A stretch of DNA of 54,509 bases from a virus (lineage: Duplodnaviria; Caudoviricetes), in the IMG/VR virus record IMGVR_UViG_3300020477_000032, positions 1-54,509 of that record, one strand, 5' to 3'. A program made the translations under genes and the position numbers. The notes beneath the pieces are model-generated. The model saw only the letters and a program-made list of their open reading frames with translations, did no database searches and was not told the origin of the DNA. This document shows, one piece after another, positions 1 to 54,509 of the stretch; the first letter of the stretch is position 1; the number at the start of each line of letters is the position of its first letter.

Positions 1-1
1 A

Positions 2-217
2 ACATTTAAGATTGGGTGTGCAACGGATGCTACCAATACAATATTAGAAAATACACAGACCACAGACCTAACGGCTGCAAAGAAAAGAGAGAGGTACATT
101 CCAAACAATTCAGAAGATGGTCTACAAACTATAACTGTAGAAATTTCAACTGGAGCATCTGCTACGACTGCCAAAGGAAGATTTTATTTCAAGGGCATGT
201 TAGTCGAAGATGAATAA
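2..217 (+). CDS. 3' end of an upstream CDS (partial), probably virion-associated
   Basis: Frame 2 is open from the window edge (TFKIGCATDATN...KGRFYFKGMLVEDE*) with phage-typical codons and stops just before a late promoter; preferred over the listed 16..213 ORF. Confidence 0.7.
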   Translation, partial: TFKIGCATDATNTILENTQTTDLTAAKKRERYIPNNSEDGLQTITVEISTGASATTAKGRFYFKGMLVEDE

Positions 218-219
218 CA

Positions 220-227
220 TATAAATA
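220..227 (+). promoter_or_regulatory. T4-type late promoter TATAAATA
   Basis: Exact gp55 consensus, intergenic, followed by ACAATAC; SD AAGGAG before 276. Confidence 0.85.
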
Positions 228-275
228 ACAATACCAAGAAAATTTTGGTATGATTACTATTTAAGGAGAAAACAA

Positions 276-584
276 ATGGCATTTACAGCAAGTGTTACAG
301 AATTCGGACATACTTTTACCGATGCGGTGGTAGAAGTTACAGAAGCAAATTTAGAATATCGTTTAAACGATTTTGGTGCAGGCCCAGAGGGAGAAACCCC
401 ATCACCTACTACTAAACTAAGAATTAATTATAAAGTCTATGTCAGTCAGGCCGCAAAAGATGCTGGTGGACGAGAAATTATAAATGAATGGGATGAGTCT
501 GATGCTGGTGATGATACCGACATCGTAGACGGAAATCTTTTGGCAGTTGCCGAAGCAATAGTGGCGGCAAAATTAGCAAGTTAA
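276..584 (+). CDS. hypothetical acidic late protein
   Basis: Strong SD, late promoter, position in fibre region. Confidence 0.75.
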   Translation: MAFTASVTEFGHTFTDAVVEVTEANLEYRLNDFGAGPEGETPSPTTKLRINYKVYVSQAAKDAGGREIINEWDESDAGDDTDIVDGNLLAVAEAIVAAKLAS

Positions 585-617
585 ATTATTTTACTAACTT
601 TTTGAAGTGAGGTCGTA

Positions 618-1523
618 ATGGATTTTGATAAGATTATTTTCCACGCAAATGGTGGCATCGGCAAAAATGTCGTTGCTACTGCGGTTTTGAAAGCAATAAA
701 GAAAAAATATGATTTGCCCATTTATGTTGTTACAGGATGGCCAGAGATTTATAAATTCGATCCAAACGTGGCAAGGGTGTTCAAATTTGGAGCAACCCAA
801 TATTTCTACGAGGATAATATTAAAAGAGGGAAACCTTTAATTTTAGCACAGGAGCCTTACTTATCAACACAACATATTGTTGAACGTAAACCATTGCGAC
901 AAAGTTGGATTGAAATGTATGGGCTGGAATACGATAATGAGTATCCAGAACTACATTTCAATCACCGACATCATGAAATAGTAAGGCAGAATTTTCAAAG
1001 AGACAAACCAACAGTTTTAATACAAACTAATGGTGGAGCTCCAGACCCCGAAGGAAAGAGATTATATAGTTGGGCAAGAGATATGCCAATGATTACGGCA
1101 CAGGGTGTCGTAGATAGATTGAAATCTAAATATCATTTCTTTCAAATCTGTTACAATGAACAACAAGTTTTAAAGGATGCAGAACCAATACAGGGTTTGA
1201 ATGAAATGGAACTTTTCGCATTACTAAAAGAAACAAAGGGTAGGGTATTGATAGACAGTTCGATGCAACATGGTGCAGGGGCAATGAATTTGCCGAGTAC
1301 AGTAGTTTGGATTGCAAACGAACCAGAGGTATGGAGTTATACCTGTCATAGTCATATTTTACCGAAAGTAGAGAAAAAATTCGATACACCAGCAAAGGAC
1401 TTATATCAGAGGTATGATATTGGTGGATCAACTGACGAATATCCGTATGAAACGGATGATATATTTGATGTAGATGAAATAGTGAGTTCAGTTGAGAAAC
1501 AAATCAACGAATCTGGTGTTTAG
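618..1523 (+). CDS. glycosyltransferase, GT-B fold, GT9 (heptosyltransferase)-like
   Basis: N-terminal GGIGKxxxxTAVLKAIKKKY and C-terminal IDSSMQHGAGAMNLPSTVVW match the GT9 pattern (GxGD... / DSGxxHxAxAxxxPxxxL). Confidence 0.7.
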   Translation: MDFDKIIFHANGGIGKNVVATAVLKAIKKKYDLPIYVVTGWPEIYKFDPNVARVFKFGATQYFYEDNIKRGKPLILAQEPYLSTQHIVERKPLRQSWIEMYGLEYDNEYPELHFNHRHHEIVRQNFQRDKPTVLIQTNGGAPDPEGKRLYSWARDMPMITAQGVVDRLKSKYHFFQICYNEQQVLKDAEPIQGLNEMELFALLKETKGRVLIDSSMQHGAGAMNLPSTVVWIANEPEVWSYTCHSHILPKVEKKFDTPAKDLYQRYDIGGSTDEYPYETDDIFDVDEIVSSVEKQINESGV

Positions 1524-1534
1524 TAAGTAAATAC

Positions 1535-1565
1535 GGTTTCCTAGTTCCCCACTAGGAAACCTTTA
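1535..1565 (+). terminator. perfect 11-bp hairpin (terminator or mRNA stabiliser)
   Basis: GGTTTCCTAGT-tcccc-ACTAGGAAACC followed by TTTAT. Confidence 0.6.
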
Positions 1566-1582
1566 TCTAAGGACTAGGACAT

Positions 1583-4500
1583 ATGGCACTATATAAATTT
1601 AATTTCGGAGCAGATACAGACACGACACTTTTTCACAATTCTGATGCGAGTGGTCGTGATTTTAACATGTATTCCACTTGCCATAGTGCTGGTGAAGCAG
1701 TTTTCGGGAATATTAGGGTTTCAGGAACTTCTCAATTTGGCATTATTTGTGCCGATTCATGTATTCATTTAATCAAATCATCTGGAAATGCAATTATAAA
1801 ATCAGAAAGTGGTAATAATGCTGGTGATTTATACCTAATCGGAAATCGAACTTCTAACAATGATACTAGTAACCTAACTTTCTACAATTCTTCTGAACCA
1901 ATTGCAAGGATAAGAGCATATCGACATGGAGCAAATGATGCTGGAAAATTAACATTTGCCACTCAAGCAACTGGTGGAAATCCAGTTGAACATATGACGA
2001 TATGTCCAGATGGCAAGGTATGTGCAACAAGTGCTTTTTATGGTCATTTATACGGTGTTGATCTTAAAATTACTGGTACATCTTGTTTTCAACAAAATAT
2101 ATGTTTGCAGGGTGGAAATCGTGCAGTAGTTGTTCCTAGTGGATATGGTGCTTTACAGGCAGGGTCTTGCGAGAATATCAGATTTTGTACTAATGGAATT
2201 GTCTATGTAAATTCCACTCTTTGTACTGGTAATAAATGGAAAGTTACTGAAGATGGTGTAACTTCTTGGGGTGATAGTCAAGCACAAGGTACACTTACAT
2301 GGGATACTGGTAAGGCCGTAGTGGGTGGTTTATCAGGAAATGCTTTATCACTTATTGCTGGTGGTTCTTCAAAATTGTTTATCTGCACAGGTGGCAACGT
2401 AGGAATAGGAACTGCCTCGCCAGCAAAGATACTTGAAATATCTTGTGCTGACCAACAGGTAGAACCAAGAATTACATCTACTCATGCTAGTGGGTATCCT
2501 TCTTTAAATTTCTATGTAGATACAACTACACATACAGGAAGAATTCAAGGTGGGTTGAATGATGCATATAATGCTCATGGTTCTAATTTGTTTATACATA
2601 GTCCAGAATCTGGCAGTAAGGTAGTAATTAGAGCATATCAGTGCAATGCAGTTTATATAGTTAATGATGGCAATGTAGGAATCGGAACTGCTACACCTTG
2701 TACTAGTTTAACAGTTGCCACACCAAGTACATTTACCGACCACGAATGCATCAAACATAAAATTTGTTGTAGTGGGATACACATTCTAGGTGGAACATAT
2801 GCATCTGGTAATGCATATGGAGGTTTGGTCTGGTCTGATTCCGATCAACCAACAAAACCAAAAGCAGGGATATGGTCTAAGGTTAGTTCTTCTGGTTCTT
2901 GTATAATAATGGGAACATCGAACAGTTATGTTACTGGTATCACTAATAATGCATTTGTTATGGATCAGGCCGGAAATTTTTATTTTTATGGCAATGCATA
3001 TGTAGTTGGCACTGGGGCAAGGACATGTATAAATGATGGAACTAATGTGGTACAGATGGGATTATGGGATGGTGCTACCAATAGAATAGAATCTTTTGGA
3101 GGTAGACCACTATTTATTACTTCTTATAGTGGTGGAATACGATGGGGTCTTTCTGGTAGTGTTCATATGTGTATGGATACTTCTGGAAACTTAGGAATTG
3201 GAAGTAGTTTTGACCCAACAGCAAAATTGATGGTTTCTGCTGGTGGAACTAAAGCAAAGACAGGAAGTGTATTCCATGCTATAGCTGGTAATAGTTACTC
3301 AGATACTTTATCTGGTGGGGCAAATTTTGTATTTGAAAATCCATCAACATCTCAGAATGCTGGTGATGGAGTTGTCTTAATAAAAACGGCAACTACTACT
3401 GGTACTGCTTTTGCGGTCTGTAATAATACTGCTAATATATTTAATATCTGTAATAGTGGCAACGTAGGAATCGGAACTGATACACCAGCAGTACCACTTC
3501 ATGTTTCTGGTGTAACTTGTTCTTCTTGGTTTTGTGCTGATACTGGTGTTTGTTTCAAATCTAGTAGTGCTTGTATTTCTCTCAATCAGCATTACTTTGA
3601 TACGAGGGGTGCTTCTGGTGCTTGGTGTGGATTTTCTGCTATATTTAGAACAGCAGCTGGTAATGACCCCAATAATAAATGGGTTGGAATAGGAGCAACT
3701 AACGATCATGGTTGGTTAAGTTTTGCCTCTGGTGCAGATAAACATTTGGTATTGTGTTCAGATGGAAAAGTAGGAATCGGAACTACTGCACCAGATACGA
3801 AATTAGAAGTCAAGACTTCTGTTAGTGGTGCATCAGCAAGATGTACACCACATTCTTCATTCATTCTTTATCCACATCATTCAGGTGATATACCTTATGG
3901 TCATATTACTGGTGGAAATTTTGGTACAGGTATAGAATGGAAATCCAGAACATATAACAATAGTACAGTAAAGGTTCGTGGTTATATTAGATATGGGTTA
4001 TGGGATAATTCTTCATGTACAGGTGCTGGTTATGGGCCAGGACTTGCATTTGGTCTTTCTGATTGTGGGAATGATGCTTGTGATCCTACTACTTTAATGA
4101 CTTTAAGAAGTAGTGGCAACGTAGGAATCGGAACTACTTCACCAGCACAGAAATTACATGTTTGCGGTACTGGTCAGACTCAGGTACTAATTCAAAGCAA
4201 TGGTTCTAGTAGAGCTCAACTGAAGATATATACACAACATAATGAACCAAATGACATTATCTTTGGTAGTAATGGTGATGAAGATAGATTTTCTTTATCA
4301 GGAAGGGGTTCTTCTCAAAGTCATCAATTAATAATGTATTCAAATAATGCTGGATGGCAAGAACTTCAGAAATGGCATTTTGATTGTGATGTTGTATCTT
4401 TTCCTTCTGGTTGTGTAGGAATCGGAACTGATACACCATCAGAAAAATTAACTGTTAGATGCTCTCAAGGAAGTTCTGCTTCAGTTCAGACGTTGTTGCA

Positions 4501-7500
4501 TTTGGGTCTTAATGATGGTACTGCGGTTGGAACTGGTTCTGCATTATTTCTCAAGACATCAAACAATCAAACAAGTAATAGATATGGTGCAAGAATATGG
4601 GCTCAACGTTCATCTGCTGATAATGGTGAAGCAGATTTTGGTATTGATTTAGAGTGTAGCAATGCTGGTCAGGTTAATAGATTTTTTATAGATGGTGGAA
4701 CTGGCAACGTAGGAATAGGATGTGCAGACCCAACAGAGAAACTTCATGTTAATGGTAGTATTTTGGTAGATGGTTTTAATAATGCTGGTCATGGAATATT
4801 TTTTAGACCAACTTATAGCACAAGTGGTTCAAATTCCGCATGTAATGGTGGGGTATTTACTGGTGATTTTAATGGAAGTGGTCATTATGATGGATTGAAA
4901 ATTGCTGGTTGGGATGGATTGGGTTTTTATACCAATAACGAAGAACGTATAAGAATTTGTAATAATGGCAACGTAGGAATTGGACAAGATAATCCAACTG
5001 CTAAATTTCATCTTAGTGCAAACCAAACTGGATACACTGGAGTCTTTTATAATAGTAATGCAGCCTCTGAAGGTGTAACTATTCGTGCTGGAAATACGAG
5101 TAGTCAGAACTCGTTAAGTGTTCAGAATTATGATGGTAATACTGCTATCCTGACTGCTCGTAGTGATGGCAACGTAGGAATCGGAGACGCAAATCCAGAC
5201 CACTTACTATCATTACAGAAAACTGATGGTGCAGCCATTATTGCTATTGATGCAAAAACGGGAACTAATACTTCTGGTATAATACTGAGAAATGAAGAAG
5301 CAGATAAATGGATTATTAAAAATGATGGTGGTGCAGATCAATTTGCTATTTACAATTATGCAGTTTCAAATACTGCCTTTTATATAGACCCAAATGTTTG
5401 TGCGATTGGACTTGGTAGAGCTCATACGGTAACTGCTGGTTCAAGGTCAACTGCAATCGGTTTTGAAGCAAAGGCAACTGGAGCAGCTTCTGTTCATGTT
5501 ACAGGTGATGGTGGGTGTGCAGTTGGTGATGTTTCTTCTGCCTTTGGAAAGGCAAGTAAAGCAATTGGTGCATGTTCTACTGCGATAGGTGCTTGTAATG
5601 TAGCAGAAGCTGCAGGTTCGACAGCAATAGGATTCAATGCATCAACTAACCAAGCTTGTGCATTAATTCTAGGTGGGTGTACGGTAGGAATCGGAACTTC
5701 TTCACCAGCATCGAAATTAGTTGTTGCTGGATGTTTGACTCCTTCTCAACCTGCGGCGAATGGTACAGTAAGTGGAGCAGCTGCAGATTTTGATGGTGGT
5801 GATATATATACTGGTCGTGCCTTTTTTCAAGGTTATAAAAAACAAAATGCTGGAGATTTGATTGGTATTAATAGGGAAAGTAATAATCTAATTTTTTATA
5901 ATTATACTGATGGATGTCCATTATTAAGACTTTATGAGAATGGTTGTGTTGTTGGATGCCATTTCGTAACCAATTGTCAACTTTGGAGTTCTTCTGACAT
6001 GGCAGTTGGTAATTTCCTTATTGGTGGTGCTAATGGGGCATCTGATTCTTTCAAGATGGATCAGGGAACATCTGTTTTTGATATGTGGGTTAAAGATTCT
6101 AGCATTACCTGTCCTAGAAATATATTTCGTGCTTATAATAATGGTTCATGTATAGTAATCGGTCAAGGATGCAATGCTGATGATACTGCATCTATTCCTG
6201 TCTATTTTTGTGGTGGAGTGGGAGGAAGATTAGGATTGAATTGTGGTCTATGTCATGCTTGGAAAGGAATTGACCTGACAGCTGGTTCATATAACAAGTT
6301 TTATCCAGTTGGTGTGAATGTTGGTTGTGGAGATTATTGGTCTGATGATGAAGTAGAAATTGTCCAATATAATGTACACTCCCCTTCTAGTGGTTGTGGT
6401 GCTATGTATCTTAAATTCAGGGCAAATATTACTGGTTGGGGTCATATCAATCCCGGCGTTATAGTTGAGAAGTACAATTCTGGTGGAGCCAACCAGTTGG
6501 TTTCACAGATACGAAACTGCGACCATTTTACATGTCGATATGTAGTTTGGTTAAGAGGTGGTCTGAGTTATTGTGGTAGAACTTGCATGGGTGGTGAATT
6601 TAGTAATATTACTAATAGTAGTGATGATAATTGTCTGGTTTATGACAATTCTAATAATGCTTATGACCGATATGCTCAATATGTTACTTCAATCGGTGAT
6701 CCTGAATTTGCACAGTTAGACCACAATGGTGGTGATGTAGCAATGTCATTAACCAGTAATAATATTGATAATACTCTATCTGCTGGTTGTTATGCACCAA
6801 TAGTATATGCCTGTTCATATCTTAGAGGTGGAGGATTACTCTTAACGCCGGGTACTGCTAATAATGTATCTGGTGGTTGTGATGCAACTTTATGGATTGA
6901 AGCACCAAGTGATAATGATTGGGGTCTGGTAATAAATAAAGCAAGTAATGAATATGGACAGATAATAAAGATGAAATCTGATTCTACTCATGCTTTTGGT
7001 GTTGAATTTGGTGGTACTAGAAAATTTGATGTGAGACACGATTATGCTTGTCATAATACTAAAATTTCTTCACCTATTGTTAATATTGGTGGTAGTGGTT
7101 GTTTTCAATGTCTTAGTGGAAATACAAGTTCCATTAATCTCAAAGGTGTTGGTACTACTGACATGAGATTTGGTTTTATGAATTCTTCTGGTACTCAACT
7201 GGGTTTCCTTTACGGTACTAATAATTTAGATTTTGGTTTTTTGGATGCGGGTGGGTCATGGTCATATAGACATACTAACGATGCTTCTCATTGTTGGTTT
7301 ACTAATGGTGGAACTTTCAGGGCATTATTAACTAATGGTGGTACTTTTTGTGCTACGGGGGATGTTATAGCATATTCTTCCGATAAAAGATTGAAATGCA
7401 ATGTCTTGACTATTAGTTGTGCCATAGATAGAATAAAATCAATTCGTGGTGTTGAGTTTGAATGGGATAGAGAATATATCTGTAACAACAAACTTACATT

Positions 7501-7768
7501 TACACCTTCAGAAAACGAAAAAACATTCGGTTTTATTGCACAGGAATTAGGTGAAGTAATACCTACTGCGATGGTCGAAGCACCATTTGAAGAAGCATTA
7601 TGTAGAGAGGTATCTTGGGAAGAAAAATATAAAACGATTAAACCAGAAAAGGTGATACCACTTCTGGTAGAAGCAACCAAAGAGCAACAGTGTACCATCG
7701 AAAAACAACAAAGACAAATAGATACCTTGACATGTCAGGTAGAATTGTTACTAAAGAGGTGTGCATAG
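1583..7768 (+). CDS. long tail fibre with GNVGIGT repeats, YadA-like STAIG repeats and C-terminal intramolecular chaperone (Peptidase S74-type); Cys-rich
   Basis: About ten GxVGIG modules; AYSSDKRLK cleavage motif, GFIAQE and terminal coiled coil. Confidence 0.9.
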   Translation: MALYKFNFGADTDTTLFHNSDASGRDFNMYSTCHSAGEAVFGNIRVSGTSQFGIICADSCIHLIKSSGNAIIKSESGNNAGDLYLIGNRTSNNDTSNLTFYNSSEPIARIRAYRHGANDAGKLTFATQATGGNPVEHMTICPDGKVCATSAFYGHLYGVDLKITGTSCFQQNICLQGGNRAVVVPSGYGALQAGSCENIRFCTNGIVYVNSTLCTGNKWKVTEDGVTSWGDSQAQGTLTWDTGKAVVGGLSGNALSLIAGGSSKLFICTGGNVGIGTASPAKILEISCADQQVEPRITSTHASGYPSLNFYVDTTTHTGRIQGGLNDAYNAHGSNLFIHSPESGSKVVIRAYQCNAVYIVNDGNVGIGTATPCTSLTVATPSTFTDHECIKHKICCSGIHILGGTYASGNAYGGLVWSDSDQPTKPKAGIWSKVSSSGSCIIMGTSNSYVTGITNNAFVMDQAGNFYFYGNAYVVGTGARTCINDGTNVVQMGLWDGATNRIESFGGRPLFITSYSGGIRWGLSGSVHMCMDTSGNLGIGSSFDPTAKLMVSAGGTKAKTGSVFHAIAGNSYSDTLSGGANFVFENPSTSQNAGDGVVLIKTATTTGTAFAVCNNTANIFNICNSGNVGIGTDTPAVPLHVSGVTCSSWFCADTGVCFKSSSACISLNQHYFDTRGASGAWCGFSAIFRTAAGNDPNNKWVGIGATNDHGWLSFASGADKHLVLCSDGKVGIGTTAPDTKLEVKTSVSGASARCTPHSSFILYPHHSGDIPYGHITGGNFGTGIEWKSRTYNNSTVKVRGYIRYGLWDNSSCTGAGYGPGLAFGLSDCGNDACDPTTLMTLRSSGNVGIGTTSPAQKLHVCGTGQTQVLIQSNGSSRAQLKIYTQHNEPNDIIFGSNGDEDRFSLSGRGSSQSHQLIMYSNNAGWQELQKWHFDCDVVSFPSGCVGIGTDTPSEKLTVRCSQGSSASVQTLLHLGLNDGTAVGTGSALFLKTSNNQTSNRYGARIWAQRSSADNGEADFGIDLECSNAGQVNRFFIDGGTGNVGIGCADPTEKLHVNGSILVDGFNNAGHGIFFRPTYSTSGSNSACNGGVFTGDFNGSGHYDGLKIAGWDGLGFYTNNEERIRICNNGNVGIGQDNPTAKFHLSANQTGYTGVFYNSNAASEGVTIRAGNTSSQNSLSVQNYDGNTAILTARSDGNVGIGDANPDHLLSLQKTDGAAIIAIDAKTGTNTSGIILRNEEADKWIIKNDGGADQFAIYNYAVSNTAFYIDPNVCAIGLGRAHTVTAGSRSTAIGFEAKATGAASVHVTGDGGCAVGDVSSAFGKASKAIGACSTAIGACNVAEAAGSTAIGFNASTNQACALILGGCTVGIGTSSPASKLVVAGCLTPSQPAANGTVSGAAADFDGGDIYTGRAFFQGYKKQNAGDLIGINRESNNLIFYNYTDGCPLLRLYENGCVVGCHFVTNCQLWSSSDMAVGNFLIGGANGASDSFKMDQGTSVFDMWVKDSSITCPRNIFRAYNNGSCIVIGQGCNADDTASIPVYFCGGVGGRLGLNCGLCHAWKGIDLTAGSYNKFYPVGVNVGCGDYWSDDEVEIVQYNVHSPSSGCGAMYLKFRANITGWGHINPGVIVEKYNSGGANQLVSQIRNCDHFTCRYVVWLRGGLSYCGRTCMGGEFSNITNSSDDNCLVYDNSNNAYDRYAQYVTSIGDPEFAQLDHNGGDVAMSLTSNNIDNTLSAGCYAPIVYACSYLRGGGLLLTPGTANNVSGGCDATLWIEAPSDNDWGLVINKASNEYGQIIKMKSDSTHAFGVEFGGTRKFDVRHDYACHNTKISSPIVNIGGSGCFQCLSGNTSSINLKGVGTTDMRFGFMNSSGTQLGFLYGTNNLDFGFLDAGGSWSYRHTNDASHCWFTNGGTFRALLTNGGTFCATGDVIAYSSDKRLKCNVLTISCAIDRIKSIRGVEFEWDREYICNNKLTFTPSENEKTFGFIAQELGEVIPTAMVEAPFEEALCREVSWEEKYKTIKPEKVIPLLVEATKEQQCTIEKQQRQIDTLTCQVELLLKRCA
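2393..5698 (+). repeat. dispersed intragenic DNA repeat (GGCAAC)GTAGGAATHGGA(ACT), 10 copies
   Basis: Core begins at about 2399, 2675, 3464, 3770, 4121, 4415, 4709, 4973, 5174, 5684. Confidence 0.85.
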
Positions 7769-9265
7769 ATGAATTTTTACGAATACCCCATTACACAGGA
7801 TTATAGTTACATTTCCACACCATATAATGAGACTTCTTATTATGCTATGCCAGAGACGATTCATATGGCAACTTCTGGCACATTGAGTTTAGGAACGTCT
7901 GCTGGTGTTGGTCAATGTGCTTGTTTTGTTACAATGGCATGTCCGAGTGGTCTTTCGACACTCACTAATAATAATGCTAGAGATATTTCGGGTATTTCAG
8001 CAATACAATGTGGTTATATTATTACTGGAGCCCATGAACAGGGGGTTGCTTCTTGGAGTTTTGATACTTGTATGCAACCCGATTCAGCTGTCTGTCAAAT
8101 ACTTCGATCATGTAGTGGTTGTTATGTTGCTATTTCAGATGCGGTTGCTTCTTGTGAAGCAGATGGTTATGTTTTTTTAGGAACTTGTTACGGAAATGGT
8201 GCATTCGGTGTTTGTTGTAATGGAGTTATATCTATCCACGTTGGGTCAAACGGATGCTTAACACTTAAAGATTCGGAAAATGTTTCTTGGGGGAGTAACA
8301 ATTATGGTCAGGTGGCGGGTGGTATGTATCATGACCAAAAGAGTAAATTTATCTATGTAAATACATATGAAGGCCCATCAATCTATTGCTATAATTCTTC
8401 AGATGGAAGTCTTACTGTTTGTAGTTTCTGTTATGCAATTGATTCAATGGGGAGGGGCATATATGCTATGGATTTTTATGGATGTTGTTATCTATTAACA
8501 GCAAATGATACATATGGAATATATGCATACTGTTTACATCAGGGAACAAATTGTATTTGTACTGGAGCTGCCTACTACAATAGTGGAAATTGTAAGATTG
8601 GATGTGGTTATAGTTCTACGTCAGCGGGGTATGGAATGAATTATGGTATTAATAGTAATTGTCCTGCTTGTCATATTTGGGGTGGTTGTGCCACACATTG
8701 TGATGCAGACGATGGTGGTTTTTTTGTTACTTCAAACGGTAGGTGTCTTTATATTATGTGTCTTTGGTGTAACAATTTAAATCCATTTGTAATGTGCTTG
8801 AAATGTAGTTATGAACTTCATAATAGTAGTTCGTCTAGTTGCCAAATTCATGGTGTGTCGGGTGATGATGAATATATTTATGTCATACAATGTAGTTGGA
8901 TTCAGGTATTTTCTATTTCTACCAGTGGAGCAGTAACTAGAATTTCGTGCTGTCCTAATAGTTATTCACCTAATAGTGGTAGATATACCATTAATGCAGT
9001 TCCGAATAATTCTAATTATGCTTCTACATGTCATGTATGGGTGTCTTGGCGTTCTGAATGGGCATCAAATAATAGTCAGAAAGGAAGATTATTGGCATAT
9101 ACTAAACCAGCACAACACAGAAGTATTAGAGGATTGTTTGGTGGTTCTGCTCCTGATGCTATTTCCGAATATTATGCAGGGGGTAGTTATGTTCCGAGTT
9201 GGAATAGTGGAGTACCAACAAGTGGTGAAATAACATTTTCAGATTTCTATAACGCAGGTAAGTAA
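7769..9265 (+). CDS. putative fibre-tip adhesin, Cys-rich
   Basis: Directly follows the fibre; C-terminal FGGSAPDAISEYYAGG...VPTSGEITFSDFY motif typical of fibre-associated proteins; alternative start at 7865. Confidence 0.65.
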   Translation: MNFYEYPITQDYSYISTPYNETSYYAMPETIHMATSGTLSLGTSAGVGQCACFVTMACPSGLSTLTNNNARDISGISAIQCGYIITGAHEQGVASWSFDTCMQPDSAVCQILRSCSGCYVAISDAVASCEADGYVFLGTCYGNGAFGVCCNGVISIHVGSNGCLTLKDSENVSWGSNNYGQVAGGMYHDQKSKFIYVNTYEGPSIYCYNSSDGSLTVCSFCYAIDSMGRGIYAMDFYGCCYLLTANDTYGIYAYCLHQGTNCICTGAAYYNSGNCKIGCGYSSTSAGYGMNYGINSNCPACHIWGGCATHCDADDGGFFVTSNGRCLYIMCLWCNNLNPFVMCLKCSYELHNSSSSSCQIHGVSGDDEYIYVIQCSWIQVFSISTSGAVTRISCCPNSYSPNSGRYTINAVPNNSNYASTCHVWVSWRSEWASNNSQKGRLLAYTKPAQHRSIRGLFGGSAPDAISEYYAGGSYVPSWNSGVPTSGEITFSDFYNAGK

Positions 9266-19700: not shown

Positions 19701-20339
19701 ATGGATATTTCTGGTTTCAAACAAGCAATGGCAGGGGGTGGGGCAAGACCCACTCTCTACTATGTTCAAATTATGCCCCCATCAGGTCTGAGTGGAAATG
19801 TTGGAACGCAAGGTTCCAATTTTATTCAATTCATGGCACAAACTGCTTCTATACCAGCAGGTACTATCGGAATGATAGAAGTACCTTTTATGGGAAGAAA
19901 AGTTAAGATGGCAGGGGATAGGACGTATGAAGATTGGAATACAACGATTGTCAACGATGAAGGGTTTACGGTCAGAAATTATGTCGAAAAATGGCAAGAA
20001 TTGATTAATGGCCCTATAAGTAATCTAACTTCTGCTAAAGATTATGCAGATTATACATCTGTTGCTCATGTTGTTCACTTATCAAAATCTGGTGAAAAAA
20101 TTGCTGAATATGCCATGCAAGATTGCTGGCCCAGCACAGTTGCCGCTATTGAATTGGGATGGGAAACTAACGATTCATTAGAAACTTTTGATATAACTTG
20201 GACATTTAATCAATGGGTTAATCTAGGTTCTGAAAATAGTTCTACTGATTTGGGAGATGAGGTTATAACACCTATTATAAATAAAATGAGAGATGGATTA
20301 TCACAAAGAATTACTAGTTTAACAGACAAATTAGTATAA
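19701..20339 (+). CDS. gp19: tail tube gp19
   Basis: GGGARPTL, VPFMGRKVKMAGDRTY. Confidence 0.95.
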   Translation: MDISGFKQAMAGGGARPTLYYVQIMPPSGLSGNVGTQGSNFIQFMAQTASIPAGTIGMIEVPFMGRKVKMAGDRTYEDWNTTIVNDEGFTVRNYVEKWQELINGPISNLTSAKDYADYTSVAHVVHLSKSGEKIAEYAMQDCWPSTVAAIELGWETNDSLETFDITWTFNQWVNLGSENSSTDLGDEVITPIINKMRDGLSQRITSLTDKLV

Positions 20340-20352
20340 TAAAAAAACAATC

Positions 20353-20381
20353 GGGGGGAGTTACAAATATCCCCCCATTTC
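20353..20381 (+). terminator. GC-rich hairpin after gp19
   Basis: GGGGGGA-N10-TCCCCCC then ATTT; A-tract upstream. Confidence 0.6.
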
Positions 20382-20395
20382 TCTAGGTATCAAAG

Positions 20396-22048: not shown

Positions 22049-22059
22049 GGAGTTTTTAG

Positions 22060-22242
22060 ATGGCAACAACCGATTTAGTAAATGCGATTTTGAATGATGA
22101 TAATGTAGAAGCAATGAATCAGTTCAATATAGTTCTTGCTGATAAAATAAATGATGCTTTAGATGTTAAAAAAGAACTTGTTGCCACTGATTGGTTGAAT
22201 AGCATCGACAATGAAGAAGAAGTCGAAACAGAGGTAAAGTAA
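22060..22242 (+). CDS. small acidic prohead core protein (gp67-like position)
   Basis: Synteny after gp20, size, acidity, SD AAGGAG. Confidence 0.6.
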   Translation: MATTDLVNAILNDDNVEAMNQFNIVLADKINDALDVKKELVATDWLNSIDNEEEVETEVK

Positions 22243-22243
22243 T

Positions 22244-22621
22244 ATGGCACAAAAAGTTTTATTCGATCAATCGACAATAAAAGGAAAGGCATCGTATTTA
22301 ATCAATCTTGCTAGTGGTGGTTCCGAAACGTTAGATATTTCTGCGTTGGATGATTCTAGTGGTGCAACAGCAAGAGTTAATATAGTTGATGTAAAATGGA
22401 CATCTGCCGCTGGTGTAACTATTGCTTGGGATGCTGGAACAGATGAAACAGCAATGCAATTATCAGGAAATGGTGTCTGGAAAGAAGCACAACTTCCATA
22501 TAGTACTGCTAGTGGTGCAACTGGTGATATTATAGTAACTGCTGGTAGTGGTGTTGCAACTGTTGTCATTACCGTTAGAAAAGTTGCTGGTTTCACTGGT
22601 AGAACAGACTATTCTGGATAA
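22244..22621 (+). CDS. hypothetical virion protein
   Basis: Packed between gp67-like gene and gp21; beta-rich. Confidence 0.65.
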   Translation: MAQKVLFDQSTIKGKASYLINLASGGSETLDISALDDSSGATARVNIVDVKWTSAAGVTIAWDAGTDETAMQLSGNGVWKEAQLPYSTASGATGDIIVTAGSGVATVVITVRKVAGFTGRTDYSG

Positions 22622-22631
22622 AGGGGTAAAA

Positions 22632-23285: not shown

Positions 23286-23289
23286 TTAT

Positions 23290-32458: not shown

Positions 32459-32473
32459 AAAGTGCTTTTTCTC

Positions 32474-32503
32474 TTGACAAGCACTTGCCGAATGTGGTAT
32501 AAT
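32474..32503 (+). promoter_or_regulatory. sigma70-type promoter
   Basis: TTGACA-N18-TATAAT with TGTGG before the -10. Confidence 0.85.
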
Positions 32504-32555
32504 ATAGACGTAACAAGGGGGAAAGAAAAAGTTCTTCCCCAATCAAACTTGAATT

Positions 32556-33686: not shown

Positions 33687-34978
33687 ATTTCAGAAATATA
33701 GTGGGAAATCCACCTTTTCAGGATACTGCCAATCGTGGTAAAACTCAGCATAAGGTATGGATAGATTTCACTGCACGAATTTTCGATCAGGTGTTATCAT
33801 TTGGTGGCAATTTCGGTTGGATAACACCTACTAGTTTTTCAAGTCCTAGTAATAAAGTATTAAATTTGTTTCGAGAACATGAAGTCAAAGTCATCGACTT
33901 TGACACTGGTAGGTATTTTCCAACCGTTGGTTCTACTTTCAGCAATTATACTATTGTTAAAGGAAGAAATCAGACAAATACCACAATGGTTAGAAGAAAT
34001 GCTAGAGAATTCGAGGTTTGTTTTGATAACAGTACATTTTATTTACCCAATGATTTTTGTGATGAATCGTATTCCATTCATAAAAAAGTTATGTTTGATA
34101 ATGTAGACAGGTTTAATGTTAAGAAGGATTATGTAAGTTGTCATAATATTTTGTTGAACAAGGAAAATTCGACATTGAGTAAAACCAAAACGGACAAACA
34201 TATTTATCCTGTTTTTCATACCAACAGACAAAAATGGTTTACAACATTTAAACAGGATTTTGCTGATTCAAAGAAAGTTATGTGGACAAGAAGTGGTTAT
34301 ACCAAACCATTTTATGATGATGGTACTATGGGGTGTACTGATATGGGTTATTACATTACAGTACAGACTGATGAAGATGGCATAAACTTGGAAAACAATT
34401 TCGATACAGAGTTATTCAGATATATTTTCAAAACCGCAAAGTGGTCTGGTTTCGGGAACGAAAAGGTTTTTTCGGCATTACCAGAGATTCCGATAGATAG
34501 GAAAATGACCGATGATGAAATGTATAATTTCTTTTCCATATCAGACGATGAAATTAATTACATAAAAACCTTTAGTAATAAAAAAGTATTAAAAGATAAA
34601 ACTAAAAAACTTATTAAGTCTGATACCAGAGTTAAGAATTTGGGAGAAGTTTTTACACCCAAAGAACTAGTTAATACAATATTGGATACTTTTCCGCAAG
34701 AAGAATTCAGTTCAAATCAACTTTTTTTAGATCCGTCTTGTGGGAATGGTAATTTTTTGGTTGAGGTGGTCAAAAGAAAGAAGAACATGGGTATACCAGA
34801 TGATAAAAATGCGAGTACTATTTACGGGGTTGACATTATGGAAGACAATGTTTCAGAGTGTAGGGAAAGATTACTAAGTATATTGGGAAATAAATATAAA
34901 AGGGTTTTGGACAATAATATACTATGTACAAATGGTTTTGAGTATGATTATAGTTTTTTTGATTTATATAGTATATGA
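33683..34978 (+). CDS. amino (probably N6-adenine) DNA methyltransferase, circularly permuted
   Basis: IVGNPPF at the N-terminus; GEVFTP, FLDPSCGNGNF, IYGVDI at the C-terminus. Confidence 0.85.
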   Translation: MNFRNIVGNPPFQDTANRGKTQHKVWIDFTARIFDQVLSFGGNFGWITPTSFSSPSNKVLNLFREHEVKVIDFDTGRYFPTVGSTFSNYTIVKGRNQTNTTMVRRNAREFEVCFDNSTFYLPNDFCDESYSIHKKVMFDNVDRFNVKKDYVSCHNILLNKENSTLSKTKTDKHIYPVFHTNRQKWFTTFKQDFADSKKVMWTRSGYTKPFYDDGTMGCTDMGYYITVQTDEDGINLENNFDTELFRYIFKTAKWSGFGNEKVFSALPEIPIDRKMTDDEMYNFFSISDDEINYIKTFSNKKVLKDKTKKLIKSDTRVKNLGEVFTPKELVNTILDTFPQEEFSSNQLFLDPSCGNGNFLVEVVKRKKNMGIPDDKNASTIYGVDIMEDNVSECRERLLSILGNKYKRVLDNNILCTNGFEYDYSFFDLYSI

Positions 34979-35814
34979 AATATCAATTGATTCGTGGTGA
35001 TTGTCTTGTTGAGATGAAGAAAATTGATGATGCAAGTATTGACTTGATTTTATGTGATTTGCCTTATGGTACAACTGACCAATACAGTGATAGCAATGAA
35101 AACAGAGTTTTCGATTGGGATATGGTCATTCCATTAGATTTGTTATGGGAACAGTATAAAAGAATATTGAAACCGAAGGGAACAGTTGTTTTAACTGCTG
35201 ACCAACCTTTTACTTCACAATTGGTCATTTCAAATTATGAATGGTTTAAGTACGAGTGGATTTGGGTTAAGGAGAAAGTGATTGGGTTTTTATTGGCAAA
35301 TTATCGACCAATGAAACAGACAGAAGATATTCTGGTTTTTTCACCAGCAGGGGCATCTGCTGGTTCTGCCAAATCTGGAAATTCTATGACATATAATCCG
35401 CAAGGGTTGATACCTAAACGGGTCAAGAAAAGGAATAATCCTAAACGACTTGGTGTTGTTATACATAATCCAGATCATTTGGGTAGTGGCAATAAATTAT
35501 TAACGGATTCGGAATATGAGCAGAAATTTACTAATTATCCATCAGAAATAATAAATTGCTCACTTGATGATGAACGTGTTCATCCTACACAAAAACCAGT
35601 TGCTTTGATGGAATATCTGATTCGGACACATTCAAACGAAGATGATTTGGTTTTGGATAATTGTATGGGCAGTGGAACAACTGGTGTTGCTTGTGGTCGA
35701 ACAGGCAGGAGATTTGTCGGGATAGAACAGAATCAAGAATTTTTTACTATCGCAGAAGAAAGGATCAAAGACTCCTATTTTAATTTAGAAACTATGTTTG
35801 GGGGAGACAAATGA
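34975..35814 (+). CDS. beta-class N4/N6 DNA methyltransferase
   Basis: GDC, DLPYG, HPTQKP, LDNCMGSGTTG. Confidence 0.93.
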   Translation: MKYQLIRGDCLVEMKKIDDASIDLILCDLPYGTTDQYSDSNENRVFDWDMVIPLDLLWEQYKRILKPKGTVVLTADQPFTSQLVISNYEWFKYEWIWVKEKVIGFLLANYRPMKQTEDILVFSPAGASAGSAKSGNSMTYNPQGLIPKRVKKRNNPKRLGVVIHNPDHLGSGNKLLTDSEYEQKFTNYPSEIINCSLDDERVHPTQKPVALMEYLIRTHSNEDDLVLDNCMGSGTTGVACGRTGRRFVGIEQNQEFFTIAEERIKDSYFNLETMFGGDK

Positions 35815-36598: not shown

Positions 36599-37708
36599 AT
36601 GGAATTGAGTTACGATGATACGATGCATGTAAAAAAGGTCTATGAGGATTTTTATGGACAGTTGACAGATGTTTCTGATTATATGCGAATCAAGAAATTA
36701 GAAGCACTTTCGCAACTTCCACCACAACTTTTCAGTCATTCTGATGATTACTTTGACTCTTATGATATGAGTCCAATGGACATGGATTTCGAGATAGTTG
36801 ACGTATCACAACAACAATTTACGAGTTTATTAGAATACACTACATCGTGGGGATTTGAAACAACACCCGGCCGATTATTGCGGTATGGGATTAAGGAAAA
36901 GAATACAAATAGATTTATAGGTTTGATTAAAATGGGTTCACCTGTTATTAATATGAAACCGAGAAATGTAATGCTTGGTGGTGTTCCTAAATTGCCAATT
37001 TTCAACCGACATGCAACAATGGGTTTTTGTATTGTACCTATGCAACCATTTGGATTTAACTATTTGGGTGGTAAATTACTTGCTCTGATATGTGCATCGC
37101 ATTTTATCAGACGGGAATGGAACAAAAAATACGATACAGAAATATGTATGTTTGAAACTACATCCTTGTATGGTGATATAAAGGGTGTTTCGCAATATGA
37201 TGGACTCAAACCATTTATGCGTTATAAGGGTTTGAGTGAATCTAAATTTTTACAGAGTTTTTTGGATAAACAGTATGACTATTTGAGGGATTTCTTTAAA
37301 ATTAGGAATGGTGGTGTTCCTATCTTAAAACGACCACAAGCAAGTTATCGAATGAAAATTCAAAATATGATTTTAGGTATTTTGAAGAAGAATTTGAGAA
37401 TACACGATCAACAGATGTACGATGATTTTAGTAAATTTATTAGTGAACGGGTTTCTCTGACTAGCAAAAAACGGTATTATGTAGGTCATTATGGTTATAA
37501 AAATGCATTAGAATATATTAAGGGTGATGAACCAAAACTAATCAAGAATGTAAATTTTGACCGTTTTGAAATGGATAATGTCATTGAGTGGTGGAGAAAA
37601 AAAGCACAACGCAGATTCGAGACATTAAAAAAGGATGGTAGATATAGAACTGAACAGGAAATTTGGGATATTAACGAGGTCAGGAAAGAATTTGATATCA
37701 TTAGATGA
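36599..37708 (+). CDS. DUF4338/DruA-like protein, possible DNA-modifying GNAT fold
   Basis: PFGFNYLGGKLLAL, ETTSLYG, SQY motifs. Confidence 0.6.
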   Translation: MELSYDDTMHVKKVYEDFYGQLTDVSDYMRIKKLEALSQLPPQLFSHSDDYFDSYDMSPMDMDFEIVDVSQQQFTSLLEYTTSWGFETTPGRLLRYGIKEKNTNRFIGLIKMGSPVINMKPRNVMLGGVPKLPIFNRHATMGFCIVPMQPFGFNYLGGKLLALICASHFIRREWNKKYDTEICMFETTSLYGDIKGVSQYDGLKPFMRYKGLSESKFLQSFLDKQYDYLRDFFKIRNGGVPILKRPQASYRMKIQNMILGILKKNLRIHDQQMYDDFSKFISERVSLTSKKRYYVGHYGYKNALEYIKGDEPKLIKNVNFDRFEMDNVIEWWRKKAQRRFETLKKDGRYRTEQEIWDINEVRKEFDIIR

Positions 37709-51262: not shown

Positions 51263-52522
51263 ATGGTGGATACATTAGAAATTCTTAGGGATGATTCAAA
51301 CATTTTATGGACTTGTATAGCGGCATTTTTAGTGTTTTTTATGCAAGCAGGGTTTGCGTTAGTTGAAGCAGGGTTCACCAGAGCAAAGAATGTATGTAAT
51401 ATAATCATGAAGAATTTAATGGATGTTTCCATTGGGTCTGTTATTTTTTGGTTATTTGGTTTCGGTTTGATGTTTGGTGCATCGAATGGATATTTCGGTA
51501 CAAATTTCTTTATGTTCGATGGTTCGTCTGAAATAGCAAAGGAAACAGGAAATTCGGTTGGTTTTAACTGGGCATTTTTATTATTTCAAACAGTGTTTTG
51601 TGCAACTACAGCAACCATAGTTAGTGGTGCGGTAGCAGAACGTACTAAATTCACATCGTATTTGTTATTTTCACTAATTATTTGTGGTTTGATTTATCCT
51701 ATTTTTGGTTCGTGGGCATGGGGTAGTCTATATGCTGGTGAGGGATGGTTGGAAATAATAGGGTTTCACGATTTTGCTGGTTCAACTGTAGTTCATTCTA
51801 TTGGTGGTTGGGCGGCATTAGCAGGGGCAATAGTTGTAGGTGCTAGACGAGGAAAATATTTAGAAAATGGAACTATGAGATTGATTGCACCACATAATGT
51901 ACCAATAGGTGCGTTGGGTGTGTTTATTCTATGGTTGGGTTGGTTTGGATTTAATGCTGGTAGTACAACTTCACTTGGTGGAGATTTGGCATTTATTGCA
52001 GTCGTTACAAATTTATCTGCATGTGCAGGAGCAATTGGTGCTGGTTTATTGAGTTGGTTTTTATATCGAAAACCAGACCCAACGTTAGCATTGAATGGTG
52101 CTTTAGCAGGGTTGGTTTCGATAACTGCTGGATGTGATATTATTTCACCTAGTATGGCAGTTTTAACAGGTTTGATTGGTGGTGTTATTGTTGTTAGTGC
52201 AGTTAGATTATTCGATAGGTTGAAAATTGATGATCCAGTTGGTGCAATTTCGGTGCATGGAGTTTGTGGTGCATGGGGTACGTTAGCAATAGGATTGTTA
52301 AGTTCTAAAGCAAGTCTTGGACAACTCTTTATACAGTCCGTTGGAGTTTTTGTTGCCTTTTTATGGGCATTTGGACTGAGTTTTCCATTATTTCTTCTAA
52401 TCAAACATACTATCGGAATCAGGGTTGATGAACGTGAAGAATTTGAAGGTTTAGACATTGCAGAGCATGGAATTTCTGGTTACGAAGGAGTACCGATTCT
52501 AGTGAATCAAAGAGAGATGTAG
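51263..52522 (+). CDS. amt: ammonium transporter (Amt family)
   Basis: FFMQAGF, SGAVAER, HDFAGSTVVH, WFGFNAGS, DDPVGAISVH, GLDIAEHG; multiple TM segments. Confidence 0.97.
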   Translation: MVDTLEILRDDSNILWTCIAAFLVFFMQAGFALVEAGFTRAKNVCNIIMKNLMDVSIGSVIFWLFGFGLMFGASNGYFGTNFFMFDGSSEIAKETGNSVGFNWAFLLFQTVFCATTATIVSGAVAERTKFTSYLLFSLIICGLIYPIFGSWAWGSLYAGEGWLEIIGFHDFAGSTVVHSIGGWAALAGAIVVGARRGKYLENGTMRLIAPHNVPIGALGVFILWLGWFGFNAGSTTSLGGDLAFIAVVTNLSACAGAIGAGLLSWFLYRKPDPTLALNGALAGLVSITAGCDIISPSMAVLTGLIGGVIVVSAVRLFDRLKIDDPVGAISVHGVCGAWGTLAIGLLSSKASLGQLFIQSVGVFVAFLWAFGLSFPLFLLIKHTIGIRVDEREEFEGLDIAEHGISGYEGVPILVNQREM

Positions 52523-52585
52523 ATGTCAGAATTTGAACTTGCCGTTATGGTATTGATGGTAGTTCTTATTATACTGAATAATTAA
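52523..52585 (+). CDS. 20-aa hydrophobic microprotein
   Basis: MSEFELAVMVLMVVLIILNN*, starts immediately after the amt stop. Confidence 0.35.
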   Translation: MSEFELAVMVLMVVLIILNN

Positions 52586-52599
52586 AAAGGGGCAGAACG

Positions 52600-52941
52600 A
52601 TGCAAGGAACAATAATGGAAAAATATGTACAAGCAATCGACCATCTTGAGGAAGGTGGTCGTTCTTCGCAAGGTACATTATTTCAAGCAATTGGTTGGAT
52701 TGATAACAGTCGATATATCCGAAAGGGTAGTGTAGTTGGGAATACTAAAACTAATTCCATTTCATTCAAAATGAATGATGGTACTGATATAACTATCAAT
52801 AACGTTGTTTACAAGAAGGATAAAAGAAAATTTTGCTACGATGAAATATTGGGTGTCGAAGATGATTTTAATAGAACTTCTGATATAATAAATACTTTAG
52901 CAGAAATTGGTATAGACTTCAATACAGACGAGAAATATTAA
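52600..52941 (+). CDS. hypothetical protein
   Basis: Packed ORF; start may be 52615. Confidence 0.6.
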   Translation: MQGTIMEKYVQAIDHLEEGGRSSQGTLFQAIGWIDNSRYIRKGSVVGNTKTNSISFKMNDGTDITINNVVYKKDKRKFCYDEILGVEDDFNRTSDIINTLAEIGIDFNTDEKY

Positions 52942-52943
52942 AA

Positions 52944-53396
52944 ATGAAATCGTTCAGGAACTTCATCACCGAAAATAGGAATTTGGCATTACAAATTTCA
53001 GATGTTATATATAGATTTACCAGTGGTCTTCTTTTCGGTGATGATAGAGTTCAGTGCCATGAATCTGTCAAAAAAGTTAAAGAAGAAGGTCAGGAATTAC
53101 AGGTTGGTAAATTTAGATTTCACGGAATTCTAAGTTTCATAGAGTGGGATGAGTCAAAATGGGATTTATTTGAAAAGGTTGTAAAATCCGATACATCGTG
53201 GAAAAAAATAAATATCAAAGAATTTCAGAATTTGGTTATAGACATTTCTGATGGGTCGGTAAATGGGCATAGTTTTATAAAGGTATTTGATTATTATATT
53301 GACCCGTATTTTAATTCTGCTGGTTTAAGTTTTCAGGAAATACAAAAATCTTGTAAATGGTTTGCAAAGATTTACAAGAAAATGGGGATAATATGA
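52944..53396 (+). CDS. putative internal head protein
   Basis: MKSFRNFITE N-terminus. Confidence 0.65.
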   Translation: MKSFRNFITENRNLALQISDVIYRFTSGLLFGDDRVQCHESVKKVKEEGQELQVGKFRFHGILSFIEWDESKWDLFEKVVKSDTSWKKINIKEFQNLVIDISDGSVNGHSFIKVFDYYIDPYFNSAGLSFQEIQKSCKWFAKIYKKMGII

Positions 53397-54421
53397 TAAG
53401 TTTTAAGCAATTCATTACAGAAGCAGTTGGACAACGAGAACTGAAAGACATGGTTTTTGTTCCTTTCAGTAGAACTGATGCCAGTTCAGATAATGTTAGT
53501 TTTATGCGACAGTTGGTAATGCCAATGTCTAAAAAGATGTCTCAACGTCTTTTTGGTGAAAGAAATCGAGTTAAAGCGGCACATATCACCAGTGAAGGTT
53601 CTGTGGATGGATTGGTTAAAATGCAAGGAACCCAAAAATCATTGGCATGTATGACCAATCCATCTGACCCAAAAATATGGAGAGAAGGTGTTGCAACGGG
53701 TGGTGGTATTGTTTTTATTGTTGAAGGTTATCCTACACTCATTGCTAATATTGACTTATATAGCAGATTAGACCAACAAGGTAGACGTTTTATACCTTTG
53801 TCGAGTTTATTTCCACTTGACAGAGGTGAGTTCACATATCCACCTGAGCATGACAAGTTAATGAAGCAATTACGCAGTACAATATTCAGACAGATTAAAG
53901 AAGCACAGAGCAATATTCTTTTCAATTTGGTTTCTAGCAAATTAGTCAAGGGCAATGATAACTTGGTAAATCATATAATGCAGTCTGGATTCCATAACAT
54001 TCCAAAACTGAAAATCAAGGAATGGGGTGATTGGTTGGGTGTTGATAAAAAACTCTATGGAAAAATTATGTCATTTTGTATTAAGATGTGGTTCGATGAA
54101 ATGGAAAAAATATGGAAATCCAACTACAGAAAAATGGAATATATTTTCGATCCAGAAATGATGTCAGAACGAAGGATGGGTTGGGATGAAATCAATTTGG
54201 TTGATATAAAATTGCTCAAGTGTTATGTTGTATCTGAAACTGCTGGTGATTTATGGGGAGATTTCGGAGTACAAGATGACGATATTTGGAATGATGGTGA
54301 AGAAGTTGATACAGGTGGAGTTCCAATTGCTGGATATTTGGAAATTGATATGTCTCATGATGAATATTCAGAAAAGGGTTGGAAGGCAGTTCGAGATATA
54401 CAACAGGAGATACGTCAATGA
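53393..54421 (+). CDS. putative internal head protein (start revised)
   Basis: MISFKQFITE at an ATGA overlap. Confidence 0.7.
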   Translation: MISFKQFITEAVGQRELKDMVFVPFSRTDASSDNVSFMRQLVMPMSKKMSQRLFGERNRVKAAHITSEGSVDGLVKMQGTQKSLACMTNPSDPKIWREGVATGGGIVFIVEGYPTLIANIDLYSRLDQQGRRFIPLSSLFPLDRGEFTYPPEHDKLMKQLRSTIFRQIKEAQSNILFNLVSSKLVKGNDNLVNHIMQSGFHNIPKLKIKEWGDWLGVDKKLYGKIMSFCIKMWFDEMEKIWKSNYRKMEYIFDPEMMSERRMGWDEINLVDIKLLKCYVVSETAGDLWGDFGVQDDDIWNDGEEVDTGGVPIAGYLEIDMSHDEYSEKGWKAVRDIQQEIRQ

Positions 54422-54509
54422 AATCGTTTAAGCAATTTATCACTGAAGGTACTGCTTCCGAAATTAAGGAATTGATTTTTGTAGATAGTGAGTATGAGTA
54501 TCCAATTCC
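54418..54509 (+). CDS. putative internal head protein, 5' part only
   Basis: MKSFKQFITEGTASEIKEL..., SD AGGAG, ATGA overlap. Confidence 0.7.
   Translation, partial: MKSFKQFITEGTASEIKELIFVDSEYEYPI

Follow-up and report, generated by a model that had tools for sequence, protein, structure and literature searches.

In a 54,509-bp stretch of viral DNA (IMG/VR virus record IMGVR_UViG_3300020477_000032; this whole stretch is called the window below), we found that the short motif VGCB, a GC dinucleotide with a non-T 5' flank and a non-A 3' flank, occurred almost only inside restriction-type sites, and that G+C-rich sites of this type occurred only where they overlapped VGCB. The window had a G+C content of 35.3%, and its completeness was estimated at approximately 30% by CheckV. 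Statistical and comparative evidence supported the view that V..B-flanked GC behaves as a protective element, or shield, for CCNGG, GGNCC, GCNGC, GDGCHC, CCGG, CGNCG, and CTGCAG, and that the overlaps were built through codon choice. The window was best explained as part of the genome of a T4-like marine phage, uncultured and exposed to very strong pressure from restriction. The site statistics, the recoding relative to a syntenic contig, the recurrence of the pattern in strains, and the association of the site architecture with an enzyme family were observed directly.

VGCB and restriction-type sites in the window

The null model consisted of 300 within-gene synonymous-codon shuffles of 55 plus-strand open reading frames (ORFs; 17,316 codons, 96% coding), for which the gene models were ORF calls made in this analysis, not curated annotation. 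VGCB accounted for 89 of the 1,506 GC dinucleotides, compared with 412.7 ± 12.9 in the shuffles (minimum, 378), and 94% of the GC dinucleotides over positions 1–54509 were TGC and/or GCA. The sequence-only reading that preceded this analysis had called VGCB scarce, and the depletion was stronger than it had stated. The observed/expected ratio (o/e) was 0.13 by base composition, and eight of the nine VGCB words had an o/e of 0–0.33 against the synonymous shuffles. The ninth, GGCC, seemed to be exempt (19 vs 22.7 expected), yet 16 of the 19 lay in shield-type sites and free GGCC was reduced to 3 against 13.2 expected. Depletion was found in each of the three codon phases. All 49 AGC codons and all 11 CGC codons had A as the next base; Ala codons preceded by A were GCA in 233 cases and GCT in 23, whereas those preceded by T were GCT, GCA, GCC, and GCG in 275, 199, 66, and 39 cases, respectively. 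For 68 of the 89 VGCB, the GC was within a shield-type site, compared with 14.7 ± 1.7% in the shuffles. VGCB inside such sites stood at expectation (68 vs 60.6 ± 7.3), whereas free VGCB had been purged 17-fold (21 vs 352). As the sequence-only reading had suggested, stray motifs were commoner in the fibre genes: 13 of the 21 free VGCB lay in the tail-fibre region (618–9265), and the stray at position 922 was missing from three other sequencing runs. VGCB was also moderately under-represented in most marine T4-like loci (L001–L160), with a synonymous-shuffle o/e of 0.4–0.85 in eight controls; such a context bias forms the background, and any survey has to subtract it.

All 15 CCNGG sites in the window overlapped VGCB, whereas the shuffles contained 30.7 sites with 4.7 ± 2.0 overlapped; overlapped sites were therefore enriched, and un-overlapped sites numbered 0 against 26.0 (minimum, 16). 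These sites (4037–41245; starts at 4037, 6452, 6848, 10787, 13734, 16376, 16381, 17378, 18149, 21371, 24012, 27358, 29779, 36866, and 41241) were all CCNGGC or GCCNGG with a V..B flank, and 13 of them were Pro-Gly codon pairs. The same held for GGNCC (13/13 overlapped; un-overlapped, 0 vs 20.0), GDGCHC (10/10; 0 vs 17.5), CCGG (9/9; 0 vs 40.1), and CGNCG (6/6; 0 vs 18.9). GGWCC was absent (20.4 expected), and CTGCAG was found only twice, against about 15 expected, both times with VGCB. The 34 GCNGC sites (73–53578), of which 32 were Ala-Ala pairs, each carried VGCB, as in GCA GCT, GCC GCT, and V GCG GCA (un-overlapped, 0 vs 18.3). Because of the overlaps with GCNGC, GDGCHC, and CTGCAG, AGCT, CGCT, and AGCG also appeared to act as shields, and only these sites showed this. 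Except at Trp-Pro, VGCB was avoidable by synonymous change at every site of overlap. Sites that VGCB cannot cover were avoided as well: ATCGAT (0 vs 18), TTCGAA (0 vs 17), TGATCA (1 vs 18), GATATC (1 vs 15), TCTAGA (0 vs 11), and GTTAAC (0 vs 10). Palindromes thus fell widely below the codon-preserving null, many sites being 0 against 7–40 expected. The avoidance sets differed sharply among related phages. GATC was nearly missing from the first 50,000 positions of the cultured Methylophilales phage Melnitz (L163; 4 vs 116) and from contig L076 (2 vs 48), which also lacked ACGT (0 vs 29) and GTAC (0 vs 33).

The overlap was complete at the level of dipeptides, since 13 of 13 Pro-Gly, 11 of 11 Gly-Pro, 32 of 32 Ala-Ala, and 2 of 2 Trp-Pro pairs were overlapped by VGCB. 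The codon spellings noticed in the sequence-only reading for the first three thus extended to all pairs, and the shuffles placed the overlap of restriction-type sites far above the control level. Pro-Gly was spelled CCN GGC B in ten cases and VG CCN GGN in three. Gly-Pro was GGC CCN or GGG CCN in all 11, giving GGSCC that contained GGCC (plus strand, 381–25146; starts at 381, 4034, 8372, 15053, 17468, 20010, 21896, 21905, 22857, 23952, and 25141). The avoidance extended to the protein level, because Pro-Gly, Gly-Pro, and Ala-Ala were depleted two- to threefold (o/e 0.34, 0.29, and 0.54, respectively). The corresponding values in 157 other T4-like loci (452,659 amino acids) were 1.03, 0.76, and 1.11, and the frequencies were near normal in L076 and in contig L081, described below.

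A C5-cytosine transferase in relatives and the proposed shield

The nearest relative that we found was the metagenome contig L081, with 65% identity in the capsid protein; the capsid protein of the window was approximately 56% identical to its counterparts in Melnitz, HTVC008M, and cyanophages alike. CCNGG occurred only as CCNGGC or GCCNGG in L081 (13/13) and L076 (12/12), as in the window. In L081, modification genes occupied the slot just downstream of the gp47/gp46-like nuclease pair, which is at 29388–32137 (plus strand) in the window. This slot contained a MamI-like endonuclease, an N6_N4 methyltransferase (MTase), and a C5-cytosine enzyme of PF00145 (E = 4e-51), and positions 17252–20475 of L081 (the same contig as L245) looked like a complete restriction–modification (R-M) module in a T4-like phage. 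The best PDB match of the C5 enzyme was 8YF3 (E = 3e-64), which is SpCmoX, described as a DNA cytosine C5-carboxymethyltransferase acting at GC motifs in the T4-like Synechococcus phage S-B43 (PMC12783734). According to the same paper, approximately 10% of C and 75% of GC sequences in S-B43 virion DNA carry 5-glycyl-carboxymethylcytosine, and carboxymethylation blocks HhaI (PMC12783734).

The L081 enzyme had a full-length homolog in Melnitz, with 41% identity. In its genome, CCNGG was GC-flanked in 19 of 19 cases (9.4 expected), with 0 un-flanked sites against 19.6 expected; GGWCC was absent (18.5 expected), and the flank was present at 7 of 7 CGNCG and 3 of 3 CCGG. VGCB was mildly depleted in Melnitz (302 vs 442). 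Of 480 matches to the L081/Melnitz-type enzyme, our survey covered the 80 best. The 76 IMG/VR contigs that encoded it contained 221 CCNGG, of which 216 were flanked (59.2 expected), and 164 flanks were of the VGCB type (139 expected). Seven of these contigs followed the VGCB-type rule: GCNGC without VGCB numbered 5 against 38.0 expected and with VGCB 78 against 51.5, whereas shielded CTGCAG numbered 14 against 4.0 and unshielded CTGCAG 0 against 13.2. T4-like loci selected by major capsid protein showed a bimodal distribution: among the 117 loci that had four or more CCNGG, 21 were at least 90% flanked. In lacking GGWCC and having CCNGG only in the CCNGGC form, the window shared the genome signature of the phages that bear the enzyme. 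The window differed in one respect, in that GGCA/TGCC flanked none of its 15 CCNGG, although GGCA made up 85% of its GGCN; this flank was used at 4 of 13 sites in L081, 3 of 12 in L076, and 7 of 19 in Melnitz.

The reading best supported by the statistics, the homology, and the association in relatives is a shield, which we consider probable. Most palindromic restriction-type sites have been removed outright, and G+C-rich sites forced by the protein (CCNGG at Pro-Gly, GGNCC at Gly-Pro, GCNGC at Ala-Ala) are kept only in the VGCB-overlapping spelling. The C of VGCB would be modified at C5 by a GC-directed transferase of the L081/Melnitz family of SpCmoX homologs, the gene of which would sit in the unsequenced 70% or so of the genome. 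With at least one strand of the overlapping site carrying a modified C, one enzyme would then block several host endonucleases. Each modified or modifiable VGCB would be costly in this lineage, so that free VGCB would have been recoded at wobble and flanking positions, and the proteins would have come to contain fewer of the forcing dipeptides. The mutual exclusivity of the two patterns, with sites present only with VGCB and VGCB almost only inside sites, favors the shield. We infer from this evidence the chemistry, the possession of the enzyme by this phage, and the kind of cost. Candidate costs are a modification-sensing host nuclease, a phage nuclease that cuts its own DNA at unmodified VGCB, a bulky adduct that hinders polymerases, and diversion of the modifying enzyme from the sites where it is needed. 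A possible elaboration, which we put forward tentatively, is that modification would be indispensable against the type II enzymes of the host, yet each modified VGCB would be penalized by the host or by machinery of the phage, for example by modification-dependent restriction, and the genome and its dipeptides would have been rewritten to confine the modification to places where a forced site is shielded.

Several observations weigh against the shield reading. No C5-MTase gene of PF00145 was found in the window, which covers approximately 30% of the genome, or in the 5.3-kb extension of the strain contig L325 past the 3' end of the window, bringing the coverage of this phage to approximately 60 kb; the extension contained three orphan ORFs and a cytidylyltransferase-like gene and no modification gene. 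The records of L076, L326, L327, L328, and L325 likewise yielded no PF00145, but all of them are fragments, so that this says little. Part of the ORFs in the window were scanned against Pfam; within this set, the only methyltransferase-fold matches were the two adenine-type enzymes described below, and there was no asparagine-synthase-like family of the CmoY type. The enzymes of the relatives also departed from SpCmoX. Those of L081 and Melnitz kept SPPC but had Leu at the position of the carboxymethyl-binding R350, so that the combination of R350 with CmoA and CmoY partners that marks a true CmoX was not present. A tblastn search of S-B43 with the L081 enzyme aligned only the N-terminal part (46%), and in a three-way alignment of the inter-motif region Melnitz aligned with SpCmoX, whereas L081 had large insertions. 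The GC specificity and the nature of the adduct were therefore carried over by homology and genome signature. Moreover, the flank of CCNGG, CCGG, and GGSCC is GGC or GCC by geometry, so that GC and GGC specificities are inseparable at these sites in the relatives.

The architecture and the purge also did not always accompany an enzyme of this family. S-B43 and 80 SpCmoX-type contigs had no shield (118 of 735 CCNGG flanked), indicating that modification alone was insufficient for the architecture, which evidently needs the enzyme plus a host that cuts these sites. Enzyme-bearing relatives were not purged, with a synonymous-shuffle VGCB o/e of 0.73–1.03 in 18 of 19 and of 0.40 in L293; the purge therefore needs an extra, lineage-specific cause. 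None of the best 80 of 480 L081/Melnitz-type matches reached the level of the window, the minimum base-composition o/e being 0.28. We also considered whether the purge was tied to true CmoX enzymes and rejected this, since the 80 SpCmoX-type contigs had a median base-composition o/e of 0.52 and no shield. The shield, the purge, and the codon-built overlaps proposed in the sequence-only reading thus stood on statistical and comparative grounds. Its statement that the phage loses VGCB where it is not needed agreed with the purge but gave no reason for the loss, and the unpurged enzyme-bearing relatives make a lineage-specific cost necessary.

Alternative explanations and selection on flanking bases

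A host orphan GC-directed methylase might make the shield, the phage exploiting it and carrying no such enzyme. The absence of an enzyme gene from about 60 kb of this phage fits this explanation, as does the statement in the Melnitz paper that a type II methylase is encoded by the phage and also by the host (PMC9004378). The architecture, however, followed a phage-borne enzyme in the 76 contigs above, and only approximately 30% of the phage genome has been seen; we therefore regard a host methylase as unlikely.

A second explanation dispenses with modification, VGCB and the other palindromes all being restriction targets and the overlaps a residue at forced sites. The avoidance of many sites beyond the reach of VGCB, such as ATCGAT and TTCGAA, would agree with this. 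VGCB was nevertheless avoidable by synonymous change at each of the overlaps and was present at all 15 CCNGG, where 4.7 were expected, while it was purged 17-fold elsewhere. Two overlapping targets would bring no benefit to a phage without modification, and this explanation is very unlikely.

Mutation bias would explain the purge if the modified C deaminated and VGCB decayed unless held by selection, and GGTG/CACC and TGGT/ACCA were indeed enriched in the window. Against this, depletion was just as strong for Ala codons in the V|GCB context, where C>T or G>A would be non-synonymous. We compared the window with the syntenic, un-purged contig L326 in eight ortholog pairs (48–85% amino-acid identity). 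Only 2 of the 56 VGCB of L326 remained VGCB in the window; in 29 the GC was kept with a T or A flank (AGCT>AGCA, GGCT>GGCA, AGCT>TGCT), and in 25 it was lost. These changes, mainly in the flanks, indicated selection on the flanks and not C>T decay. L326 avoided the same set of 6-mers as the window but tolerated AGCT (75 vs 64.5) and RGCY (138 vs 130), indicating that the purge was a recent and specific change. Among 40 of the 411 variant places, an underpowered sample, none created VGCB (1.6 expected; P = 0.17), all three new GC were of the TGC/GCA type, and one variant removed a stray. Deamination also leaves the protein-level loss of Pro-Gly, Gly-Pro, and Ala-Ala unexplained. We give this explanation very little credence; the pattern reflects selection rather than mutation bias.

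The sequence-only reading had named the two MTases of the window and a DUF4338-like gene as candidate modifiers of VGCB, and these candidates failed. The MTases, the only DNA MTases in the window, lie in a strain-variable 3.35-kb cassette (32459–35810, plus strand) with three genes. The first, P0001 (32556–33686), is an orphan of 376 amino acids that matched no Pfam, PHROG, or NCBIfam family and had no similarity to the MamI-like nuclease of L081. It is followed by P0002 (33683–34978), a circularly permuted N6A-type MTase with NPPF at the N-terminus and motif I near the C-terminus, and by P0003 (34975–35814), an N6A MTase with a DLPY motif and CcrM-like NCBIfam matches; all three are on the plus strand. 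Motif IV (NPPF or DLPY) and the CcrM-like matches identified both enzymes as adenine-type, whereas VGCB has no invariant A. The strain contig L331 lacked the cassette and yet kept the purge and the shields (3 VGCB in 173 GC), so that the pattern did not originate from the cassette. A P0001 homolog, with 54% identity and next to a 436-amino-acid ORF of the size of P0002, was found in one further contig only, the unrelated L164 (28% G+C), in which both the purge and the shielding were absent. The window MTases thus had no cytosine-type motif and were not present wherever the pattern occurred. The cassette may be a mobile R-M module. The DruA/DUF4338-like gene (36599–37708, plus strand; PHROG 19197, E = 6e-122) was kept beside the clamp loader gene in 31 phage records, including cyanophages and HTVC008M, and was therefore not specific to the pattern; one GenBank record under the DruA-like match listed "methylcarbamoylase mom" among its features. 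Modification of VGCB by any of these products is scarcely credible.

The chance that the pattern is an assembly or base-calling artefact at modified sites is negligible, because the sequence was found in many runs, three separately listed contigs with 92–97% identity shared the pattern, and the ORFs were intact. Positions 20001–30000 of the window were present in 20 runs from 10 studies (2014–2025). The purge and shield pattern was repeated in L325 (94.5% nucleotide identity; 8 VGCB in 196 GC) and L331 (92–96% identity).

Gene content and relation to known systems

The large ORFs of the window were all on the plus strand. A T4-like structural set comprised the neck and head-completion proteins, sheath stabilizer, small and large terminase subunits, sheath, tube, portal, prohead protease, scaffold, and major capsid protein. 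Replication genes encoded UvsY, the gp47/gp46-like nuclease, a sliding clamp, a clamp loader, RegA, UvsX, and a DnaB-like helicase, and auxiliary genes encoded Hsp20, a PurM-like protein, and an ammonium transporter. The tail-fibre region (618–9265, plus strand) consisted of ORFs at 618–1523, 1583–7768 (a PHROG tail fibre), and 7769–9265. Contigs from other runs joined across parts of the 2,061-amino-acid gene at 1583–7768, skipping 303–3,666 bases, which suggests repeat-mediated length variation or mosaicism and fits the excess of stray VGCB in this gene. The ammonium transporter (51263–52522; Pfam Ammonium_transp, E = 1e-117) was 85% identical to the copy of L326. It is unusual as an auxiliary gene of a T4-like phage and gives a weak hint of the host. 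Its nearest cellular homologs were in metagenome-assembled genomes of Planctomycetota, and at 61–64% identity they were too weak a basis for naming the host.

Classical palindrome avoidance in phage genomes is seen as strong under-representation against codon-preserving nulls. The avoidance in the window differs in that it depends on whether a second motif overlaps the site, and it extends to the amino-acid sequence. Multispecific C5-MTases of the Bacillus phages SPR, phi3T, and rho11s cover GGCC, CCGG, CCWGG, GCNGC, and GDGCHC, and their breadth comes from several target-recognizing domains. These systems resemble the proposed shield in that one phage enzyme opposes several host enzymes; in the window, by contrast, the breadth would come from one short motif and the placement of overlaps at the codon level. 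Chlorella viruses provide a third parallel with the GpC methyltransferase M.CviPI and the RGCY system CviJI, in which GC-centred cytosine methylation of short degenerate specificity is encoded by the virus. These are viruses of eukaryotic algae, and we know of no V..B flank rule or genome-wide combination of shield and purge in them.

The SpCmoX/CmoA/CmoY system of S-B43 is similar in that it belongs to a T4-like marine phage, modifies C5 at GC, and protects against HhaI (PMC12783734), and SpCmoX is homologous to the enzyme of the nearest relative of the window. Its modifications are 5-carboxymethyl- and 5-glycyl-carboxymethylcytosine at GC motifs, and neither flank dependence nor genome recoding is mentioned in the sections consulted (PMC12783734). 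The system differs from the case described here in that the window contained no such gene, R350 is missing from the homologs of L081 and Melnitz, and neither shield nor purge is present in S-B43 and the 80 SpCmoX-type contigs. The "HhaI-like" methylase of Melnitz, a homolog of the L081 enzyme, is closer, since the Melnitz genome has the CCNGGC-only, GGWCC-free architecture, and general protection is suggested for this methylase (PMC9004378). Melnitz differs from the window in its mild VGCB depletion and its use of GGCA/TGCC flanks. We did not find a description of the architecture in the literature on phage restriction-site avoidance and GpC methyltransferases that the search covered, which did not extend to subscription journals and supplements.

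Two known anti-restriction strategies, sequence-specific modification and site avoidance, would here be combined at the codon level: one short modification motif, placed by synonymous and even non-synonymous choice, covers every unavoidable site. Restriction would thereby shape the protein sequence, making Pro-Gly, Gly-Pro, and Ala-Ala scarce. The phenomenon extends to a considerable number of marine T4-like phages, and the architecture could be used as a sequence-only detector of phages that rely on GC-directed modification, from which enzyme specificity and host restriction repertoires might be deduced for uncultured systems. Melnitz on the OM43 strain H5P1, which is cultured and has the shield architecture, provides a tractable experimental system. 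The lineage-specific purge implies a cost of modification, such as a modification-dependent defence, of a kind not yet described for this group. If modification is both indispensable and penalized in this phage, the sequence would reveal the specificity (VGCB) of an unseen enzyme together with a counter-defence against modification. The host repertoire would then be readable as CCNGG, GGNCC, GCNGC, GDGCHC, CCGG, CGNCG, CTGCAG, and many 6-mers, and the same reading would extend to the approximately one-sixth of marine T4-like contigs with fully flanked CCNGG (21/117).

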